DNA from: a virus
Taxonomy: Duplodnaviria > Heunggongvirae > Uroviricota > Caudoviricetes
Reading direction: 5' to 3' (one strand)
DNA: 23,939 nt
Virus record (IMG/VR): IMGVR_UViG_2823670853_000004
Coordinates: 1-23,939 of that record
The notes under the pieces were generated by a model. The model was given only the letters and a program-made list of their open reading frames with translations. It did no database searches and was not told the origin of the DNA. This document shows positions 3,023 through 22,698 of this stretch, one piece after another (positions within the stretch are counted from its first letter, which is position 1; each line of letters begins with the position of its first letter). The position numbers were made by a program, and so were the translations under genes.

Positions 3023-3597
3023 ACCGGGCCTCCGGTTGTATCGCCGCCTTTCAGGACGCCAGTATGCTGATGCGCATCAACCACGATCCCGTTAGAACCC
3101 ATCGCTCCGCCGCCCTGGGTAACGCCACCATTGATCACCACTTCACTGTTAATGCGCGTGCGGTCAGCCTCCAGTACAAACTCACTGGTTTTCATGGTGA
3201 TGTTGTCAGCGGCCTCAATGACCATTGATTTGATGCCCCTGACATGCCAGCGTCCGGTGGCGGGTTCGTATTCAAACCAGCCACCGTCAGGATGTTCTGT
3301 CACGCAGGCGTCCGCCGACGTCGACGGTGGCGCGAACTGATTCGAATAGATGGCGGGTAACGCAAAGGCGGTTTCCAGATTGCCGCCCAGACTCAGCAGC
3401 ACCACCTGCTCACCTTCCGATGGTCGCCACCATGTGCGGGCATTCCCGGCACGCAGCGTCAGCCAGCTGATCCAGTTAGTTTCAAGCTCGCCCGTTTTCA
3501 CCCGGCAAAGCCAGTTTTCCCGGTCCACTTCGGTGACTACACCTGTGCGGATCAGGTTGGTGATAAGGCGCATGATTTCGGTTAATTGTGCGTTCAT
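3019..3597 (-). CDS. V: Baseplate spike/assembly protein (gpV-like)
   Basis: 192 aa; Gly-rich C-terminus (VINGGVTQGGGAMGSNGIVVDAHQHTGVLKGGDTTGGPV) typical of gpV spike proteins; first gene of a late operon. Confidence 0.8.
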   Translation of the reverse strand: MNAQLTEIMRLITNLIRTGVVTEVDRENWLCRVKTGELETNWISWLTLRAGNARTWWRPSEGEQVVLLSLGGNLETAFALPAIYSNQFAPPSTSADACVTEHPDGGWFEYEPATGRWHVRGIKSMVIEAADNITMKTSEFVLEADRTRINSEVVINGGVTQGGGAMGSNGIVVDAHQHTGVLKGGDTTGGPV

Positions 3598-3643
3598 AGG
3601 GAAAGGTTGCCATCAGGGGAAGAAAGGCGGCAGTGCTGCAACT

Positions 3644-3661
3644 TGTATCAGTGCTGGTACA
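3644..3661. promoter_or_regulatory. TGT-N12-ACA dyad in the S-V intergenic region, candidate Ogr/B-type late-activator site
   Basis: Exact TGT(atcagtgctggt)ACA, centre 55.5 bp upstream of the V start codon; same geometry as the dyad upstream of P. Confidence 0.4.
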
Positions 3662-3665
3662 AAAA

Positions 3666-4112
3666 TCACCCCGCCAACCATTGCAGAATCATGTCGCGGG
3701 TCATTGCCTCAACATCATCATTTACGCCCAGAAGGCGACGCTCTGCGTAACGGACCTCCGGTCCTTTGCGGCTGACGCGATCACGCAGGCCATAATGGTG
3801 AACGCGGGCAATGCGCTGCACCTTACCTTCAAACTGCACGCTGGCAGAATCCTCGCTGGCGGCGGTTTTCAGGTATTTTGTAGTGCGAAGTTTTGTAAAC
3901 ATCTGCCGTTTGATACGGCCTTTTTTACTGCGTGCTGTTACTCGCCTCGGTTCATAGCTGCTGCCATCAGGATTGAGTTGCATCCTGATGTTCTGCTGCT
4001 GTGTCCGGCGCAGTTCCTGCGCCAGCTGGCGCATCATGCGGCTTCTGGCGGCTGGTTCCAGATTCGCCAGCAAGGCACTCAGCCAGTCGTCCACTTTCTG
4101 CAGTTCAGCCAC
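3666..4112 (-). CDS. S: Tail completion protein (gpS-like)
   Basis: 148-aa ORF in the P2 S position; overlaps R by 8 nt. Confidence 0.75.
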   Translation of the reverse strand: MAELQKVDDWLSALLANLEPAARSRMMRQLAQELRRTQQQNIRMQLNPDGSSYEPRRVTARSKKGRIKRQMFTKLRTTKYLKTAASEDSASVQFEGKVQRIARVHHYGLRDRVSRKGPEVRYAERRLLGVNDDVEAMTRDMILQWLAG

Positions 4113-9615: not shown

Positions 9616-11382
9616 ATGAACACCACACTGACACCCGCAGATCTCGATCCCCGTCGGCAGGCCATGCTGCTGTACTTTCAGGGATACCGCGTAGCCCGCA
9701 TTGCTGAAATGCTGGGCGAGAAAGTTGCAACCGTTCACAGCTGGAAAAAACGCGACAAGTGGGGTGACTATGGGCCGCTGGATCAGATGCAGCTCACCAC
9801 CGCCGCACGCTACTGCCAGCTCATTATGAAGGAGCACAAAGAAGGGAAAGATTTCAAAGAGATTGACCTGCTGGCGCGCCAGTCGGAGCGCCATGCGCGG
9901 ATCGGCAAGTTTAACAATGGCGGCAACGAAGCCGACTTAAACCCTAACGTCGCCAACCGCAACAAAGGCCCGCGCCGTCAGCCGGAAAAGAACGTTTTCA
10001 CCGATGAACAGATTGAGAAGCTGGAAGAAATTTTCCATTCCTCCATGTTCAACTACCAGCGCCACTGGTGGGAAGCCGGAAAAACCAACCGCATCCGCAA
10101 CCTGCTGAAGTCACGCCAGATCGGCGCGACCTTTTACTTTGCCCGTGAAGCCCTGATTGACGCCCTGCTTACCGGACGTAACCAGATTTTCCTTTCTGCC
10201 AGTAAGGCACAGGCTCACGTCTTTAAGCAGTACATCATCGACTTCGCCAAAGAAGTGGAGGTGGAGCTGAAAGGCGATCCGATGGTGCTTCCTAACGGGG
10301 CCACGCTTTACTTCCTCGGCACCAATGCCCGCACGGCCCAGAGTTACCACGGCAACCTGTATCTGGATGAATATTTCTGGATACCAAAATTTCAGGAGCT
10401 GCGCAAAGTGGCTTCCGGTATGGCTATTCACAAGAAATGGCGGCAGACCTATTTTTCCACACCATCCAGCCTGACCCACAGTGCTTATCCGTTCTGGTCC
10501 GGTGCGCTGTTCAACCGTGGGCGCAACAAAGCTGACAAGGTGGACATCGACCTGTCCCACAGCAATCTGGCCCCCGGCCTGCTGTGCGCAGACGGGCAAT
10601 ACCGCCAGATAGTCACCGTGGAAGATGCGGTGCGCGGCGGCTGTAACCTGTTCGACCTCGACCAGCTACGCATGGAGTACAGCCCAGACGAATACCAGAA
10701 CCTGCTGATGTGCGAGTTCGTGGACGATCTCGCGTCCGTGTTCCCGCTCAGCGAACTGCAGGCGTGCATGGTGGACAGTTGGGAAGTCTGGACCGACTTT
10801 CATGCACTGGCCCTGCGCCCGTTTGGCTGGCGCGAGGTGTGGATCGGTTATGACCCGGCAAAAGGTACGCAGAACGGCGACAGTGCCGGATGCGTGGTGG
10901 TGGCTCCGCCAGCCGTGCCGGGCGGTAAGTTCCGCATTCTTGAGCGTCACCAGTGGCGCGGGATGGACTTCCGTGCCCAGGCGGACGCCATCAAAAAACT
11001 GACTGAACAGTACAACGTGACCTATATCGGTATCGACTCGACAGGTGTCGGTCACGGGGTTTATGAGAACGTGAAAGCGTTCTTTCCTGCCGTCCGGGAG
11101 TTTGTCTACAACCCCAACGTTAAAAACGCCCTGGTACTCAAGGCCTACGACATTATCAGCCACCGCCGTCTGGAGTTTGACGCCGGACACACCGACATAG
11201 CGCAGTCCTTTATGGCAATCCGTCGCGCCACCACCGCCAGTGGCAACCGCCCGACCTATGAAGCCAGCCGCAGCGAAGAAGCCAGCCACGCCGATCTGGC
11301 CTGGGCAACGATGCACGCACTGTTTAACGAACCGCTGCAGGGCGAATCCGCCAATACCAGCAATATTGTGGAGATTTTTTGA
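9616..11382 (+). CDS. P: Terminase large (ATPase) subunit (gpP-like)
   Basis: 588 aa; N-terminus MNTTLTPADLDPRRQAMLLYFQGYRVARIAEMLGEKVATVHSWKKRDKW is P2 gpP-like; stop overlaps Q start. Confidence 0.9.
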   Translation: MNTTLTPADLDPRRQAMLLYFQGYRVARIAEMLGEKVATVHSWKKRDKWGDYGPLDQMQLTTAARYCQLIMKEHKEGKDFKEIDLLARQSERHARIGKFNNGGNEADLNPNVANRNKGPRRQPEKNVFTDEQIEKLEEIFHSSMFNYQRHWWEAGKTNRIRNLLKSRQIGATFYFAREALIDALLTGRNQIFLSASKAQAHVFKQYIIDFAKEVEVELKGDPMVLPNGATLYFLGTNARTAQSYHGNLYLDEYFWIPKFQELRKVASGMAIHKKWRQTYFSTPSSLTHSAYPFWSGALFNRGRNKADKVDIDLSHSNLAPGLLCADGQYRQIVTVEDAVRGGCNLFDLDQLRMEYSPDEYQNLLMCEFVDDLASVFPLSELQACMVDSWEVWTDFHALALRPFGWREVWIGYDPAKGTQNGDSAGCVVVAPPAVPGGKFRILERHQWRGMDFRAQADAIKKLTEQYNVTYIGIDSTGVGHGVYENVKAFFPAVREFVYNPNVKNALVLKAYDIISHRRLEFDAGHTDIAQSFMAIRRATTASGNRPTYEASRSEEASHADLAWATMHALFNEPLQGESANTSNIVEIF

Positions 11383-12429: not shown

Positions 12430-12464
12430 TATAACAAACAAAAAAATTTTGTTTGTTATATTTT
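12430..12464. terminator. Bidirectional hairpin between convergent Q and the GmrSD-like gene; T-run on plus strand
   Basis: Perfect inverted repeat TATAACAAACAAAA (12430-12443), loop AAA, TTTTGTTTGTTATA (12447-12460), followed by TTTT (12461-12464). Stem is AT-rich, so strength is uncertain. The minus-strand stop codon of the GmrSD-like gene (12456-12458) lies inside the right arm. Confidence 0.5.
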
Positions 12465-14039
12465 ACCTGTCATAGCTTTTAAAGCAAGTTCATTTAAATC
12501 CTCTTCGCGCTGGTTTATAAAATCACCATAAGCACTCTTTCCATTCCGTAGATTCGGATGAATCACCGCAGCATCAAAGATCATATCCCTCTCAGCCTCA
12601 TGCACTGTTGGAAAGTACACATCAGGATTCGAATCTGAAATTTGATTATTATCCTGAGCAGTTAAAAATGCAATATTAGCTATTATATTTGACTCATGAA
12701 ATGGAATTCCTTGCCTAGCCAGGTATGCCTTCGGATATATGTGGTGGAATTGTCTTGAATTATATGCTGACAAAGATGTATCAAGGTCAACCACCTTGCC
12801 TGTAATAAAACTCCGTGGAGACAACTGAGCTAACAAGCAAATAGATGCTTTTGCTGCTGAGGAATTAATTCTCCAAGTTTTTCTAAAAAACCCGGTTTCA
12901 ATTTTAGGTACTGGTTGAATATAATCATCTGGAGTACTTATAACGCTATCCATGGCGATAACATCCTCCATAACATAGGTGTTTGTTCCTGCTTTATATC
13001 TTTGCGAAAATGCACAACACCAAAACCATCTTTTAATTGAACTATATTGATAACCCGTTGGGCGAGAGACCTTTGAGAAAAAATAGGTTATAGGTACTAA
13101 CATTATTGGGAATGGTAAAAAAATTGAATTTTTTATTTTTAGATCATTAGCTAAAAAATCAACGGCATTGCGGATACCTCTTTTTAAATCCTCCATTGCG
13201 GATAGAAGAGTTGTTGGATCAATGTCAATCAAAGTATCAGAATCAATCTTCTTATTGATTATTGCCGTCAAACAACGCATCAAAAGAATTTCATCAATCT
13301 GCTCATATCCAACTGACGCAAGATATTCTTTTAATGAATCCATTTCTGTGCGCAAATCAAATTTTTCTGACCATGTCCAAGCCGTTAGCAACTCAATTGT
13401 ACTTAAACTTGTACCAGATGAGTTAATTCTCTGGAATATTCTACAAACTTCTTGATTACTTCTTTCTTTAATCGTAACAATAGGGAACTCATAATCTTTA
13501 AATTTATCAACTAAATTTGCGATTCTATCTTGCTCATCTGCCGGGAATCGTCTTAATTCAGGCAGTAGTTTTGAGGTATCAAGAATACTGCTTAATGCAA
13601 CACTATTTTTTCCTTTTGGTATATCGACAACATTGCAAAAACTATCCGTAGCAGGAATATAATGTATATTAAATCTAGATGCCAAATCACTGTTTTCTGT
13701 TTTCCTGTGGGCATTGAATACTCCAAATAAAGTTGTTAACCGCTGCTGCCCATCCAAAACATAATTAACAGGATAATCTTCTTTCACGTCAGGAAGATGA
13801 AAACCTCCTACATTTCTTTCAAACTTTAACGGTGTCTTTGTTGACCATAATAACAACGAGCCAACAGGGTAACCACTATAAATGGAGTCAATCAAACCTA
13901 ATATCTGCTCATCCGTCCATACGAAATCACGTTGAAACGCAGGAATTTTAATATTTCCACGGGTAACATCATCCAATAAAGATGCTAATCTTTGGTTACC
14001 TGAATCAATCTTTTTCTTAGAGTTTACATTATTTTCCAT
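12456..14039 (-). CDS. DUF262/DUF1524 (GmrSD-family) putative type IV modification-dependent restriction nuclease
   Basis: 527 aa. N-terminal DUF262 motifs IPAFQRDFVW and VLDGQQRLTTLFG; C-terminal DUF1524-type His-Me finger motifs FHHIYPKA and NIAFLTAQDNNQISDSNP. AGGA ribosome-binding site 6 nt upstream. Gene is AT-rich by eye. Confidence 0.8.
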   Translation of the reverse strand: MENNVNSKKKIDSGNQRLASLLDDVTRGNIKIPAFQRDFVWTDEQILGLIDSIYSGYPVGSLLLWSTKTPLKFERNVGGFHLPDVKEDYPVNYVLDGQQRLTTLFGVFNAHRKTENSDLASRFNIHYIPATDSFCNVVDIPKGKNSVALSSILDTSKLLPELRRFPADEQDRIANLVDKFKDYEFPIVTIKERSNQEVCRIFQRINSSGTSLSTIELLTAWTWSEKFDLRTEMDSLKEYLASVGYEQIDEILLMRCLTAIINKKIDSDTLIDIDPTTLLSAMEDLKRGIRNAVDFLANDLKIKNSIFLPFPIMLVPITYFFSKVSRPTGYQYSSIKRWFWCCAFSQRYKAGTNTYVMEDVIAMDSVISTPDDYIQPVPKIETGFFRKTWRINSSAAKASICLLAQLSPRSFITGKVVDLDTSLSAYNSRQFHHIYPKAYLARQGIPFHESNIIANIAFLTAQDNNQISDSNPDVYFPTVHEAERDMIFDAAVIHPNLRNGKSAYGDFINQREEDLNELALKAMTGKI

Positions 14040-14323: not shown

Positions 14324-15001
14324 CTAGAACGTGACAGCCTTGTCAAAGCCAGAAATAATTGTATAAGAAATAGACGAGTTATCAGCCTTGTTCACTTTGA
14401 ACTTGGCACCTTTGTAAGCGATAACGTCACTTCCCTTAGAATCTACAGAAAAATCTGTTGTAAATGCTGCACGAGCCATATCGTTTGCAAATTCACGATA
14501 GGTGAACTTCATTACACCGCCTGCATTTCCATTGTATTCGATAGTCTTAACCAATGAGTTACTAACTCGACACAGCCCATCAGGAACACGTTTGATAGAA
14601 ATTTCTGATGCAGTATAAGAAGTACCATTTGGCGGTGATATCTCATTTTTTGCAGCATCGTAACTAACATAATCAACATAGTTACCGATTTGCCCATAGA
14701 GATTTTTTAACGCAACAGCTTGAGGGTTATGATAATTGCGGTAAATTCCATTCCCCTCACTGCAATATGTACCAGCAGCGATAGAAGACAATGCACCATT
14801 AGCCGCACCAAGTTCTAGTACGTCCGTTTTAAATCCAGTAGCAGATGTGATAATGGGATCGCCCATGTAGGCGGTAGCACTTTGCCCAATAGCAGGCTTC
14901 ACCACTTCAATAGCAGTGATATTTCGGTTAGAAGCATGTGGCACGCAACCAGTTAGGATTACAGCAAGAGATATTGGTAACGCTACATTATTAATTTTCA
15001 T
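14324..15001 (-). CDS. Putative lipoprotein of unknown function (about 225 aa precursor)
   Basis: ORF 14324..15055 trimmed to ATG at 15001: MKINNVALPISLAVILTGC has a signal peptide and lipobox (LTGC). Mature part is Ser/Thr/Asn/Gly/Tyr-rich with alternating-hydrophobic beta-strand character, ends in Phe, two Cys. AT-rich. No family recognised. Confidence 0.6.
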   Translation of the reverse strand: MKINNVALPISLAVILTGCVPHASNRNITAIEVVKPAIGQSATAYMGDPIITSATGFKTDVLELGAANGALSSIAAGTYCSEGNGIYRNYHNPQAVALKNLYGQIGNYVDYVSYDAAKNEISPPNGTSYTASEISIKRVPDGLCRVSNSLVKTIEYNGNAGGVMKFTYREFANDMARAAFTTDFSVDSKGSDVIAYKGAKFKVNKADNSSISYTIISGFDKAVTF

Positions 15002-15025
15002 TTTTAGCCTATTATTCTTTTCTTG

Positions 15026-15060
15026 ACAAAAAACAAGGCGATATCTGATTGACATCGCCT
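15026..15060 (-). terminator. Possible weak terminator between the DinI-like gene and the lipoprotein gene
   Basis: Inverted repeat AGGCGAT/ATCGCCT (15036-15060) with an 11-nt loop, followed on the minus strand by TTGTTTTTTG. Loop is long, so weak. Confidence 0.3.
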
Positions 15061-15114
15061 CTCACTCATATGTAACCCTTTTTGATTAGTAAAAACAAGC
15101 GTCTATTGACAAAA

Positions 15115-15348
15115 TCAATGCAGCCAGCTGTCGTCTTCCCACACCTTCTGCATAATTTTCATCACTTGTTTTCTTTCTTCGTACAGTTGCAGTCCGGTCA
15201 GTTCCACACCGTTAGAGCTACCTTTACGGATACGGATTACCGTTTTGGGATACAGGGGGCGCAGATTGCGGTAAAGCTCGGATTCAAGGGCGTCCAGGGT
15301 AGACTGGCTAATCTTCTGCTCTTTATCGATCATTATTTCAATGCGCAT
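15115..15348 (-). CDS. DinI-family protein (77 aa)
   Basis: ORF-track entry 15115..15420 trimmed to ATG at 15348 (MRIEIMIDKEQ...), GAGGTGA Shine-Dalgarno 5 nt upstream. Aligns by eye with E. coli DinI (MRIE start, LDAL..EL, YP, C-terminal WEDDSWL versus WESADDW). Confidence 0.75.
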   Translation of the reverse strand: MRIEIMIDKEQKISQSTLDALESELYRNLRPLYPKTVIRIRKGSSNGVELTGLQLYEERKQVMKIMQKVWEDDSWLH

Positions 15349-15358
15349 AAAAGTCACC

Positions 15359-15547
15359 TCAGCTGATGACATCCATTGAGCGGTTGTATTCGTGGCTTCT
15401 GATTTTTGCCATGAGTTCATCAGTCAATTCAGAAACCCACTGCAGAGCCAGCCCCTTCTCTTCATCACTACACTCACTAGCCGCTACAAGCTTAAGAAAA
15501 AAATCAATGCGCTGGAGCTTCAAAGACTCCAAAAAATAGTCCTGCAT
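15359..15547 (-). CDS. Small acidic protein (62 aa), first gene of the LexA-controlled operon; possible antirepressor-like (Tum N-terminal-like) protein
   Basis: Strong AGGAGGA ribosome-binding site 4 nt before the ATG; LexA box at the promoter; stop TGA lies 10 nt before the DinI-like ATG. The antirepressor assignment is by analogy with 186 tum, not sequence recognition. Confidence 0.55.
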   Translation of the reverse strand: MQDYFLESLKLQRIDFFLKLVAASECSDEEKGLALQWVSELTDELMAKIRSHEYNRSMDVIS

Positions 15548-15589
15548 CTTTCCTCCTATGACACCACACGCAATGCTGTATGCATAACC

Positions 15590-15608
15590 ACTGTTTATAT
15601 TTACAGTA
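15590..15608. promoter_or_regulatory. LexA (SOS) box overlapping the promoter of the 62-aa/DinI-like operon
   Basis: ACTGTTTATATTTACAGTA, i.e. CTGT-N8-ACAG with an AT-rich spacer, about 45 bp upstream of the 62-aa ORF start; flanked by -35-like TTTACA and -10-like TATACT on the minus strand. Confidence 0.7.
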
Positions 15609-15701: not shown

Positions 15702-18143
15702 TTAATACAGGTTCCGCCACTTATCATCTTCCTGCAAACGCTGGTTCCGATAGAAGATACGCAGGCCTGCTCCTGACGGAATACTGCCGCCGCGAAGGAG
15801 TAAATCGACCTCTTTCTCGCTGCCATCAAATCCTCTGGATTTCAGTTCATAGACGAGATGCTGTCGTTGATGGTCTGTAATTCGCTGTTTGTAGTCTCTA
15901 CGCCGTTTCGGTTTCACCAGACGTAACCTTGCAGCCAGTTCCCGGCGCTCCTTTTTGTTCATACTGTGCAGGTAATCGTGCAACACCTTGTCATCCATGC
16001 GGGTAATGTCCGTTCTGGGGTCCCCATCAGCTGATTTATCTTTCTCCTGTTGGTTCAAATTTTCAGCAAGGGGACAGTTATTGCCACGAGTCCAAGGGGC
16101 GCAAGCGCCCTGGTCGGCTGCCGCCTCCTGAACGTCAACGGCCTTACGAACCATTTTCCACTTCACCGCATGAGTGCAGATCTTGCCCTCTGCAATGGGT
16201 GACCAGATGCCATAAATACGAATACCGTGATCGCCATATGCGGTCGGTTCTTCGTTGATTTCATAAGCAGTTCTGATGAGGTGATATTTGCGGGGAACCA
16301 GTACGCCGCCCTGCTTCATGATGTAGGTGGCAAAACAACCAGCATCAGCAGCAGCCAGGATTGCATCAAGGCGCGGGTTATCCAGTACCGGCGCACCTGC
16401 TTTTTTGTCCCCCTGTTGCCTTGCCGACTGACCAGCCAGCAATCGCAGTTCACGGTAAGCCTGACGCCCCGGAATGCCAAAGAAGCGGAATTGCTGAACA
16501 CGATGCAGAGACGCCCAGGCATTAACGTATTCAGCGTTATCACGCAGGGATTTACCCGTTTCCTTGCTGATCTCGCCAGCCAGACCACGCCCGTCAATGT
16601 TCTTACTGATGTATTTCGCGATGTAGCTTGTTGGCGTACCTTTGCGCGGGTTTATCAGCTCAGACTTAAAGCGTGGTCCCGTGTTATTACCCAGCTCCTC
16701 GCGGTCTTCACGAATGGCAAACTTACGCAACAAAGCAGTAATGGTGCGGCGATCTTTTTTGCGCATAAAACACAACAGGTGCCAGTGAACTGTACCGTCA
16801 TGATGCGGCTCAGCCACCCGCACGCCATACCAGCGCAATCCGGCTTTGTGCATCGCCTTACGAAATGCAGCAAACATGCCGACCAGATAATCACTGCTTT
16901 GTATTACCGTCGTATTTGTCCAGGTCGGGTTGGGCCTGCCGTTATTTAGCGTGGAATGGAAACGTGACGGACAGGTGATGGTGTAGAAAACGGCGCAGTC
17001 ACCGCGCATTTCCGCGATAAGCTCCAGACCTTTAACACAGGCCATCATCTCATTGCGGCGATGCGCAGGGTTGCTGCTGCTGGCGTTTACCACATCCTCC
17101 ATGTCCAGCGTGTCGCCGTCTTCGTTCACCAGTTCATGAGAACGGAAAAACTCCAGCGACTTACGGCGCTGCTCACGTTTATGCATCACGGCTTCATAGC
17201 TGACATAGGGAGATGCTTTTTTGCTGACCAGGCAAACAGCACGCAACTGCTCTTCCCGCCATTCGCAACGCATCTTCCATAATTTCCGGTACCACCAATC
17301 GGCGCACAACATACGCGCCAGCGAACCCGGAATGAGTTCATAGGGCACGGGTTTACGGCGGTTTCTTTTCCGGCGGAGTTGCTCAAACGCAGGCGGTATG
17401 ACATCTAGTCGCAGGGTTTCTGCTGCCACCTTTTCCCATGTCTTGCGGATTTCTTCTGGCTTAACGTCATCGGTGGCATACAAATCGCCACAAGCTGCAT
17501 CAAGGCACATGCTCATATGCGCAGCAACAAGGGTGGACAGGCGTTTCACCTGATCCTGACTCATTTCAGGCAGAATCAGCAGGCCGTCCAGCCCTTCATG
17601 GCTTGCCATAAAGCGAAAAGAAGTGGATAGCTGACTGTCGCGTACATGCTCCAGTCGTTCCAGACATGGCTTAATCGTCTCACGTAAATAGCGGGAATAA
17701 GCCTTTGGCCTGCCCAGGCTGCTGAAGTATTCAATACGTTGCATCAGCGGCTTGCTGATATGGGAGGGCTGGGCGCTGACGTCTGCCAGAATGACCATGT
17801 CCGGGTTAAAACGCTGCTGCTCATGCGCCAACTTTGCCCGGCTAATGAGCTTATCCTGCTCCATTTCGCGCTGGACAGGATCACGGGATTCATTAAAGAA
17901 ATAACGCTCCCAGACCTGATCACTCAGTGCCTCGCGGCGCAGTTGTTCCTGCTCGTTATCGGTAGCGTACAGAGTGATCAGGTTTGAAAGCGCAGAAACC
18001 GGCGCAACTTCCGCCGGGTCCAGATAAGGGTTAATGGCTTTCTTAGGTAAATTCCACGAATAACCCCCGGCAGAATTCTCAATGCTACCGGAAGTTACAC
18101 TGACAAATGGATCGGCAAGACGGCCTGTGCTGATCTCTGTCAC
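15702..18143 (-). CDS. A: Replication initiation protein / rolling-circle endonuclease (gpA-like)
   Basis: 813 aa in the P2 A position, last gene of the early operon; contains a [12 protein letters not shown]-type Rep motif; start overlaps the upstream stop (ATGA). Confidence 0.9.
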
Positions 18144-21915: not shown

Positions 21916-22491
21916 GTGACCATGAATTTGGAGAAAGGCGGACGAGGCGCTATAGAGCGCATGGTAGAAGCTTATGGATTCAAAACCCGACAGGCGTTGT
22001 GCGATCATTTAGGAATCTCTAAAAGTACACTCGCCACACGCTACATGCGTGACTCATTCCCAGCAGAATGGGTAATCCAGTGCGCCCTTGAAACGGGCAC
22101 CTCGCTTAATTGGCTCACAACCGGACATGGTTCAAAGCAAACTTCAGGTAATACAAATACTATGGAAGTTGCTAAATATGTATTATCTGATGGTGCCTTG
22201 CGTGAAGACGGTTTTTATATTTTTGATAAGGGATTTCTACCCTCTACGTTTAAAAAACCTTTTGTCATCACAGATAACAATTCTGAATTTATTTGTGATA
22301 AAGAATTTGATGATATACGTGATGGTAAATGGGTAATAAGTATTGATGGCGAAGTAACGATCCGTGACATTACTCGTTTACCCGGTGGAAGAATCTTCGT
22401 CGAGGGTGGAAACAGAGCCTTCGAATGTAAGATAGAAGACATTGAAATAATTGGTAAAATTATAAGTTTAACAGTCAAGTATGTTAAATAG
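21916..22491 (+). CDS. cI: Immunity repressor, 186 CI type
   Basis: 191 aa; GGAG ribosome-binding site 5 nt upstream; N-terminal helix-turn-helix region (EAYGF...CALETGTSLNWLTTGHG) and C-terminal LPGGRIFVEGGNRAFECKIEDIE resemble 186 CI as I recall it; far longer than the 99-aa P2 C repressor. Confidence 0.8.
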   Translation: MTMNLEKGGRGAIERMVEAYGFKTRQALCDHLGISKSTLATRYMRDSFPAEWVIQCALETGTSLNWLTTGHGSKQTSGNTNTMEVAKYVLSDGALREDGFYIFDKGFLPSTFKKPFVITDNNSEFICDKEFDDIRDGKWVISIDGEVTIRDITRLPGGRIFVEGGNRAFECKIEDIEIIGKIISLTVKYVK

Positions 22492-22506: not shown

Positions 22507-22698
22507 ATGCTTGGTAAGGTATTTTTTGTGGTTTTGTCATGTTCTTTGTTATTAAACCCACTAACTACCTATGCTAGAAATTATCCCTGCTCAGGGAAAA
22601 AGGGAGGTGTTTCTCACTGTACCTCAGATGGCAAATTCGTTTGCAATGATGGAACTATTAGTAAATCCAAAAAAATCTGTACTAAAAACTCACGATAA
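22507..22698 (+). CDS. Small secreted Cys-rich protein (63-aa precursor), unknown function
   Basis: GGAGG ribosome-binding site 7 nt upstream; hydrophobic signal peptide ([19 protein letters not shown]); about 40-aa Lys/Gly/Ser/Thr-rich mature peptide with four Cys; AT-rich; sits between cI and int. Confidence 0.5.

Follow-up and report, generated by a model that had tools for sequence, protein, structure and literature searches.

The window analyzed here is a stretch of 23,939 nucleotides, and 2 small genes lie next to each other on its minus strand: tumA (15359-15547), which encodes a 62-aa acidic two-helix protein that we predict to be an antirepressor of the prophage repressor CI, and tumB (15115-15348), which encodes a 77-aa protein of the DinI family. 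The tumA gene is located directly downstream of replication gene A (813 aa, P2 gpA/186 A type; 15702-18143, minus strand), the neighbor that fixes the position of the module; gene A is annotated as a replication endonuclease or as P2 gpA-like in Fels-2 and related records, and 186, PSP3, and Fels-2 share this gene order. Beyond this module, the window consists of a Fels-2/186-type prophage, whose genes include those for an integrase, a CI of the 186 type, and a CII (Phage_CP76), besides gene A. The presumed target of TumA is encoded by cI (21916-22491, plus strand), which was identified with Pfam: the protein matches Phage_CI_repr (E 2.8e-33) and Phage_CI_C (E 5.4e-29), while Peptidase_S24 reached 16.9 bits, under its cut-off of 23.3. 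The repressor is therefore of the 186 type, without a significant match to the autocleaving S24 repressors. A 721-bp block that holds the module has 96-98% identity with Fels-2, RE-2010, and numerous P2-like phages of Klebsiella and E. coli. It is 100% identical to one E. coli chromosome, and it is present in 1125 of the 5426 complete E. coli genomes. The module would govern whether very common P2/186-like prophages, found in about one fifth of complete E. coli genomes, wake after DNA damage, including the damage caused by antibiotics such as quinolones.

Upstream of tumA, we read a promoter from the sequence that consists of a -35 hexamer TTTACA (15631-15626, minus strand; the equivalent of that of 186 p95), a 17-nt spacer, and TACTGT (15608-15603). 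The latter 6 bases double as the -10 region and as the first half of a predicted LexA box (SOS box 1, TACTGTAAATATAAACAGTG, 15589-15608, minus strand). This 20-mer agrees with the LexA consensus TACTGTATATATATACAGTA at 17 of 20 positions, a score that was equalled in none of 100 shuffles, and the pattern CTGT-N8-ACAG (15591-15606) has its single match in the whole window here. Both by alignment and by eye, the layout is that of the annotated p95 promoter of 186, in which the LexA box likewise overlaps the promoter and provides its -10 region. The SOS promoter was assigned by this analogy; a generic sigma-70 scanner did not call it, because TACTGT matches just 3 of the 6 positions of the -10 consensus. 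The layout is retained among relatives: 35 of 37 related loci keep this box in front of tumA, and a -35 hexamer with at least 4 of 6 matches is found 16-18 nt 5' of TACTGT in 29 of 32. The sequence-only reading, which had proposed a near-consensus SOS box overlapping a promoter, was therefore accurate on this point. A second box (SOS box 2, GTGGTTATGCATACAG, 15576-15591, minus strand) follows immediately, the cores of the two (15606-15591 and 15591-15576) sharing 1 nt, which makes the pair a colicin-type double SOS operator at the level of sequence. At the other end of the module, 3' of tumB, a strong intrinsic-terminator-like hairpin with a T run (15025-15061, minus strand) has a stem of 11 bp, 5 of them G-C pairs, and then GTTTTTTGTC; it is the positional analogue of t95a in 186.

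The tumA reading frame starts behind a strong Shine-Dalgarno sequence (AGGAGG, 15557-15552) and ends at a TGA (15361-15359). Its product has a pI of 4.6, in agreement with its earlier description as an acidic protein with a strong ribosome-binding site. We collected 33 genomic loci with a Fels-2-type TumA, from Escherichia, Citrobacter, Klebsiella, Enterobacter, Serratia, Pantoea, Erwinia, Tatumella, and other genera. Across more than 15 genera, the gene encodes 62 aa and ends at the same stop position in 33 of 37 copies. Median pairwise dN/dS is approximately 0.07, versus 1.3 and 1.9 in the 2 alternative frames, with synonymous sites saturated; tumA is under strong purifying selection. An AlphaFold2 model (pLDDT 88) folds the protein into a two-helix hairpin (helices 2-23 and 28-61), with which Foldseek retrieved generic helical hairpins only (E > 0.8), and solved structures searched with a profile of the TumA family gave no match. 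Pfam, NCBIfam, and PADLOC returned nothing significant for the 62-aa protein, all PHROG families that it matches are labelled 'unknown function', and RefSeq labels the gene 'hypothetical protein'. It can now be annotated as a Tum-type antirepressor.

The second gene, tumB, begins with an ATG at 15348, 10 nt after the tumA stop and in the +1 frame relative to tumA, and has its own Shine-Dalgarno sequence (GAGGTGA, 15360-15354), which overlaps the tumA stop. A mechanically called 101-aa ORF starting at 15420 was considered as the true start and rejected: it lacks a Shine-Dalgarno sequence and arises only because the frame happens to be open. TumB matches the Pfam family DinI (PF06183) over the entire profile (1-63 of 63), with an E-value of 5.4e-22 and 78.3 bits, well above the curated cut-off of 24.2; it also matches PHROG 189 (1.6e-28) and the structure of E. 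coli DinI (1GHH; E 4.2e-6, residues 1-75). The likeness includes the acidic C-terminal helix, where ...QKVWEDDSW of TumB aligns with ...QETWESADDW of DinI, and where WEDDSW is the conserved motif. From its family membership, TumB would be expected to bind RecA filaments and modulate their activities. The earlier description of a separate DinI-family gene, set off by 10 nt, in another frame and with its own ribosome-binding site, therefore stands. TumB is also 40% identical to residues 71-145 of 186 Tum, in line with the statement, in the sequence-only reading, that the C-terminal half of Tum is DinI-like.

For the 62-aa protein, the relationship to Tum becomes visible with more sensitive methods. 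BLASTP gave no alignment of TumA with either 186 Tum or PSP3 TumA. We compared profiles with hhalign, using a 28-sequence alignment of TumA homologs from an exhaustive HMMER search on one side and an alignment of 186-type N-terminal halves together with PSP3-type TumA on the other; residues 7-43 aligned with residues 7-43, in register, with a probability of 91.9% and an E-value of 7e-7. Reciprocal searches of the PHROGs agree: TumA matches families 698 (6e-38), 8554 (1e-8), and 1993 (0.002), the N-terminal half of 186 Tum matches the same families in the opposite order (1993, 1.5e-23; 8554, 3e-12; 698, 5.9e-6), and PSP3 TumA matches 1993 (3e-32), all sharing one register. TumA and the Tum N-terminal half both show a helix, a turn with a conserved Cys, and a helix of the form (A/L)AL..(I/V)(S/A)E(L/I). 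While these are profile methods applied to very short proteins, the signals point consistently to the 62-aa protein being a remote homolog of the N-terminal half of 186 Tum. The alignment to Tum that the sequence-only reading had proposed as a check succeeded at the profile level.

The genetic setting agrees with this assignment. In the 186 record, promoter p95, a LexA site, tum (146 aa), the partial terminator t95a, and orf97 come directly after gene A, so that Tum does sit at the equivalent position, as had been suggested. As in the window, the first half of the SOS box in 186 serves as the -10 region of a LexA-repressed promoter, an antirepressor part is accompanied by a DinI-like part, a terminator comes after the coding sequence, and the target is a 186-type CI. 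In contrast to the window, 186 Tum is a single polypeptide, from which annotated internal in-frame starts also give a DinI-only 'truncated Tum'; there is a single SOS box, and 186 orf97 is unrelated to the downstream ORF of the window (a 243-aa ORF of equal length gave no similarity to Orf97, E 4.5). In PSP3, as in the window, tum is split into 2 genes, downstream of gene A and behind a LexA box in a promoter laid out as in 186 p95. The PSP3 record describes tumA as 'similar to 5' end 186 tum; UV induction of prophage' and tumB as 'similar to dinI and 3' end of 186 tum', and its TumB is 76.6% identical to that of the window. However, its TumA is of another sequence type, related to that of the window at the profile level alone; its 2 genes are in the same frame with a stop codon and 3 nt between them, rather than in the +1 frame 10 nt apart; only one SOS box is present; and its CI is of a different type.

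Fels-2 carries the same module as the window. Over 721 bp, the DNA is 96.7% identical, with 96.8% identity for TumA (STM2728) and 98.7% for TumB (STM2727, STM2726.1), and the promoter, the double SOS box, the 10-nt gap, and the frame relation all agree. The Fels-2 record refers its DinI gene to TumB of PSP3. The two prophages differ in CI and in cargo: their CIs are approximately 72% identical in the N-terminal domain and approximately 25% in the C-terminal domain, and the cargo 3' of tumB is a 527-aa protein with a GmrSD_N domain in the window (12456-14039) and a different hypothetical protein (STM2723.1) in Fels-2. In microarray data, expression of STM2727 rises 5.5- to 14.8-fold upon treatment with the mutagen MX, and STM2726-2727-2728 are listed as one MX-responding operon (PMC2225428, Table 4 for the induction values).

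The split has been recognized before. Lemire et al. (2011, PMC3121763) noted that Tum resembles an antirepressor fused to DinI, and that in Fels-2 and PSP3 tum is split in two, with an upstream antirepressor gene (tumA in PSP3) and a DinI-like gene (tumB); for the functional assignment in PSP3, they refer to a personal communication of G. E. Christie, and they also cite Bunny et al. 2002. The same paper describes dinI-gfoA and dinI-gftA of Gifsy-1 and Gifsy-2, LexA-repressed operons of a DinI homolog and a small antirepressor that acts on a non-cleavable repressor (PMC3121763). Those operons differ from the window in having dinI first, in their unrelated repressor and antirepressor families, and in their lambdoid backbone. 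Our own literature search on TumA/TumB returned unrelated papers only. The split tumA/tumB arrangement is thus already described for Fels-2 and PSP3, and the module is real, intact, and ordinary; as the arrangement is textbook-level for these phages, nothing fundamental is added here. The increments are modest, namely the profile-level homology of TumA and Tum, the facultative nature of dinI, the co-variation with the CI N-terminal domain, and the colicin-type double SOS box. They are useful for annotation and will hold little surprise for specialists.

Taken as a whole, we consider it very probable that the locus is the SOS operon of a Fels-2/186-type (Peduoviridae) prophage, composed of a LexA-repressed antirepressor gene, tumA, and tumB. 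With homology in both halves and a location after gene A, the central proposal of the sequence-only reading, a split Tum-type antirepressor under LexA-box control at the position of 186 tum, is upheld. The anatomy, the homologies, the purifying selection, the independence of the 2 ORFs, and the CI co-variation established here would fit together as follows, with the binding steps (LexA to the operator, TumA to CI, and TumB to RecA) supplied by inference or from the literature. In an undamaged cell, LexA would sit on the operator, over the -10 region and the transcription start, and keep tumA-tumB silent. DNA damage would activate RecA, LexA would cleave itself, and the operon would be transcribed up to the terminator behind tumB. 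TumA would then bind the non-cleavable 186-type CI and block its binding to its operators, upon which the lytic promoter would fire and the prophage would be induced. TumB would be translated independently from its own ribosome-binding site and would most likely bind RecA filaments, adjusting how strong the SOS signal is or how long it lasts. In this operon it would be an accessory, with antirepression proceeding without any need for TumB.

Across prophages, TumA is 71-98% conserved, while their CIs are only 30-60% identical to that of the window, which is unexpected for a strictly immunity-specific partner. Compared with the CIs in phage records, that of the window reaches no more than 38-56% identity (50% for Klebsiella phage Kp4860-7), even where TumA is 96-98% identical. 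Such a pattern, together with the 'unknown function' labels of every PHROG family matched, would fit a protein that is SOS-induced but acts on some conserved target other than CI, such as RecA, LexA, or a replication or late-gene factor, with the prophage being induced in another way. We regard this as improbable, given the in-register homology to the antirepressor half of 186 Tum and the co-variation of Tum and CI types. For the latter, we added 80 loci each with 186-type Tum and PSP3-type TumA to the comparison set, and compared CI, CII, and A. Between the 186-type and PSP3-type loci, the median identity is 92% for CII and 88% for A, but 33% for the N-terminal and 25% for the C-terminal domain of CI, and the Tum types differ as well. 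Tum type and CI type therefore switch together in a near-isogenic background, with the similarity inside the 186-type and PSP3-type samples partly reflecting shared descent of close relatives, and with linkage also contributing. The Fels-2-type TumA, for its part, goes with a distinct clade of CI N-terminal domains. The median identity of this domain is 54% within the Fels-2 type versus 35-37% between types, compared with 33% and 29-30% for the C-terminal domain. Likewise, 26 of the 27 Fels-2-type N-terminal domains resemble the median member of their group more than they resemble any domain of the 186 or PSP3 type, as opposed to 7 of 27 for the C-terminal domain; the exception (L027) has a Fels-2-type TumA beside a 186/PSP3-like CI N-terminal domain. 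A 2002 study by Bunny et al. is reported to have found that lexA null mutations are lethal in Salmonella on account of the Fels-2 tum homolog, which would also count against a target other than CI.

Returning to TumA as an antirepressor of CI, the co-variation suggests that it recognizes the N-terminal DNA-binding domain of the repressor, which we infer to be the likely contact. This would fit the reported action of Tum, in which the repressor is bound and operator binding is prevented (PMC3121763), and a contact surface on the CI N-terminal domain is a directly testable gain. Going further, Fels-2-type TumA could be a broad-specificity antirepressor instead of one matched to a single phage and its repressor, acting on a conserved face of the CI N-terminal domain that is common to many Fels-2-like immunity types of Enterobacterales; we put this forward tentatively, and think it somewhat doubtful at present. 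If true, a single SOS-induced TumA could cross-induce co-resident heteroimmune P2-like prophages, the double SOS box would represent a high, bacteriocin-like damage threshold without counterpart in 186 and PSP3, and the DinI gene would be an optional add-on.

The out-of-frame arrangement of tumA and tumB had been taken to allow 3 readings: a natural two-protein variant, a frameshifted tum, or a site of programmed frameshifting. Only the first of these agrees with the comparison across relatives. There, dinI follows 8-13 nt after tumA in frame 0, +1, or +2, always with its own Shine-Dalgarno sequence and ATG, and no dinI is found within 10 kb of tumA in 13 of the 33 genomic loci. What stays constant is tumA, from which the DinI gene can be separated as an accessory. 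As dinI varies in frame and is often absent, both a pseudogene and programmed frameshifting are in effect ruled out. For recoding, in which programmed +1 frameshifting or stop-codon readthrough would give a full-length Tum-like fusion as the active antirepressor, some features could be cited: the +1 frame is open from approximately 15425 up to the tumB ATG, an A5 run (GCA AAA AUC, 15407) would let Lys-tRNA re-pair in the +1 frame, and 186 has both halves in one polypeptide. However, the variable frame of dinI means that no single conserved recoding event can serve all relatives, and a tumB that invariably has its own start signals, or is missing altogether, does not fit a fusion either. No slippery heptamer in the window leads into the dinI frame; the sole site resembling X XXY YYZ shifts to -1, where the frame is closed by a stop. 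In addition, an exhaustive HMMER search for TumA homologs yielded 67 representative clusters only, nearly all of 50-75 aa, and none of the 67 has the size or layout of a fusion. A hairpin at the junction (15370-15353, spanning the tumA stop and the tumB Shine-Dalgarno sequence), which we also considered as a means of translational coupling and rejected, has a z-score of -0.91 and a sequence that is unconserved in relatives. We thus give a fusion product very little credence. Least credible of all is a tum broken by a frameshift in a defective prophage, with the 62-aa ORF as a non-functional remnant: the 2 halves are out of frame in the window, and isolated decayed copies do exist (tumA is frameshifted in locus L036 and runs into a dinI remnant in L032), but the low dN/dS at saturated synonymous divergence, the retention of length, stop, Shine-Dalgarno sequence, promoter, and LexA box across more than 15 genera, and the presence of the module in 1125 complete E. 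coli genomes and in the viable phages Fels-2, RE-2010, and SopEPhi all speak against decay.

The double operator is a feature that sets the Fels-2-type modules apart from those of 186 and PSP3. SOS box 2 is found at the same offset in 26 of 35 Fels-2-type loci, and in none of the 81 186-type or the 80 PSP3-type loci. By analogy with colicin promoters, 2 LexA dimers may bind the double operator of the window cooperatively, and Fels-2-type prophages would keep tumA under tighter, later-firing SOS control than 186 does. The colicin-type double box thus suggests that the SOS threshold of Fels-2-type prophages is set higher than that of 186. The likeness to bacteriocin operators is close: the 40-nt Fels-2 operator matches 1187 plasmid records, and on pCKO3 and pAp the match lies approximately 43 nt 5' of a colicin-like bacteriocin gene with immunity and lysis genes. 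The operator of the window (TACTGTAAATATAAACAGTGGTTATGCATACAG) aligns at almost every base with the double box upstream of the pCKO3 colicin-like gene, the difference being that the double SOS promoters of colicins and cloacins drive bacteriocins, whereas the one in the window drives a prophage antirepressor.

The CI repressor of the prophage (21916-22491, + strand) represents a rare immunity type. Among the phage-collection records, no CI exceeds 56% identity to it, and the nearest relative that was found, at 89%, is encoded in the genome of an Escherichia sp. (L006). The phage backbone, unlike CI, is approximately 96% identical to Klebsiella phages, and the immunity region of the window is a mosaic replacement. 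Among the loci compared, there was a single exception to the association between TumA type and the N-terminal domain of CI. This is L027, from Pantoea stewartii ATCC 8199 (CI at about 3204-3725), in which a Fels-2-type TumA (84% identical) accompanies a CI whose N-terminal domain is nearest to the 186 and PSP3 types (67%), and which may be a mismatched recombinant.

The tumA operator consists of 2 overlapping SOS boxes (15574-15608, - strand), a double box that was found in 26 of the 35 Fels-2-type loci, versus none of the 161 loci of 186 or PSP3 type. A nearly identical double box lies upstream of the colicin/cloacin-type bacteriocin genes carried on Col plasmids. At other related loci, tumA itself has decayed, or stands without its DinI-family partner. 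In L036 (Siccibacter turicensis; tumA at 10001), a frameshift interrupts the gene after 20 codons, and the search for a LexA box at this locus found none; in L032 ([Erwinia] mediterraneensis; tumA likewise at 10001), the usual stop is absent and a 72-aa reading frame enters a truncated dinI start. No DinI gene was found within 10 kb of tumA in L010, L012, L021, L024, L029-L031, L033-L035, and L038, where the solitary tumA is preceded by a LexA box and other genes take the place of dinI downstream. For the fused tum of phage 186 (1291-1731 in L004), the RefSeq record annotates 4 nested in-frame products, one of which is a 76-aa DinI-only form with a GTG start, labelled “truncated Tum - modulates SOS induction”. 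Thus, even when fused, tum may supply a separate DinI-like protein, which would functionally mirror the split tumA/tumB arrangement.

Directly downstream of the tumB terminator lies a lipoprotein-like ORF (14324-15001, - strand; ORF listed to 15055), with a signal ending in AVILTGC, a match to PHROG 1353 (unknown function), and its own promoter-like site (15029-15000). Its position is equivalent to that of 186 orf97, which equals the mechanical ORF in length (243 aa), but no sequence similarity between the two was found. The interval that separates the SOS operon from the portal and terminase genes encodes a protein of 527 aa (12456-14039, - strand) that carries a GmrSD_N (DUF262-type) domain; its best match in PADLOC is PDC-M55C, a candidate defence protein (E = 1.6e-64). 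Different genes occupy this cargo position in Fels-2 and RE-2010, that of RE-2010 being an “abortive infection protein”. Finally, a 63-aa ORF lies between cI and int (22507-22698, + strand). Its N-terminus resembles a signal peptide, it contains several cysteines, and it may be a cargo gene for a small secreted protein or lipoprotein.
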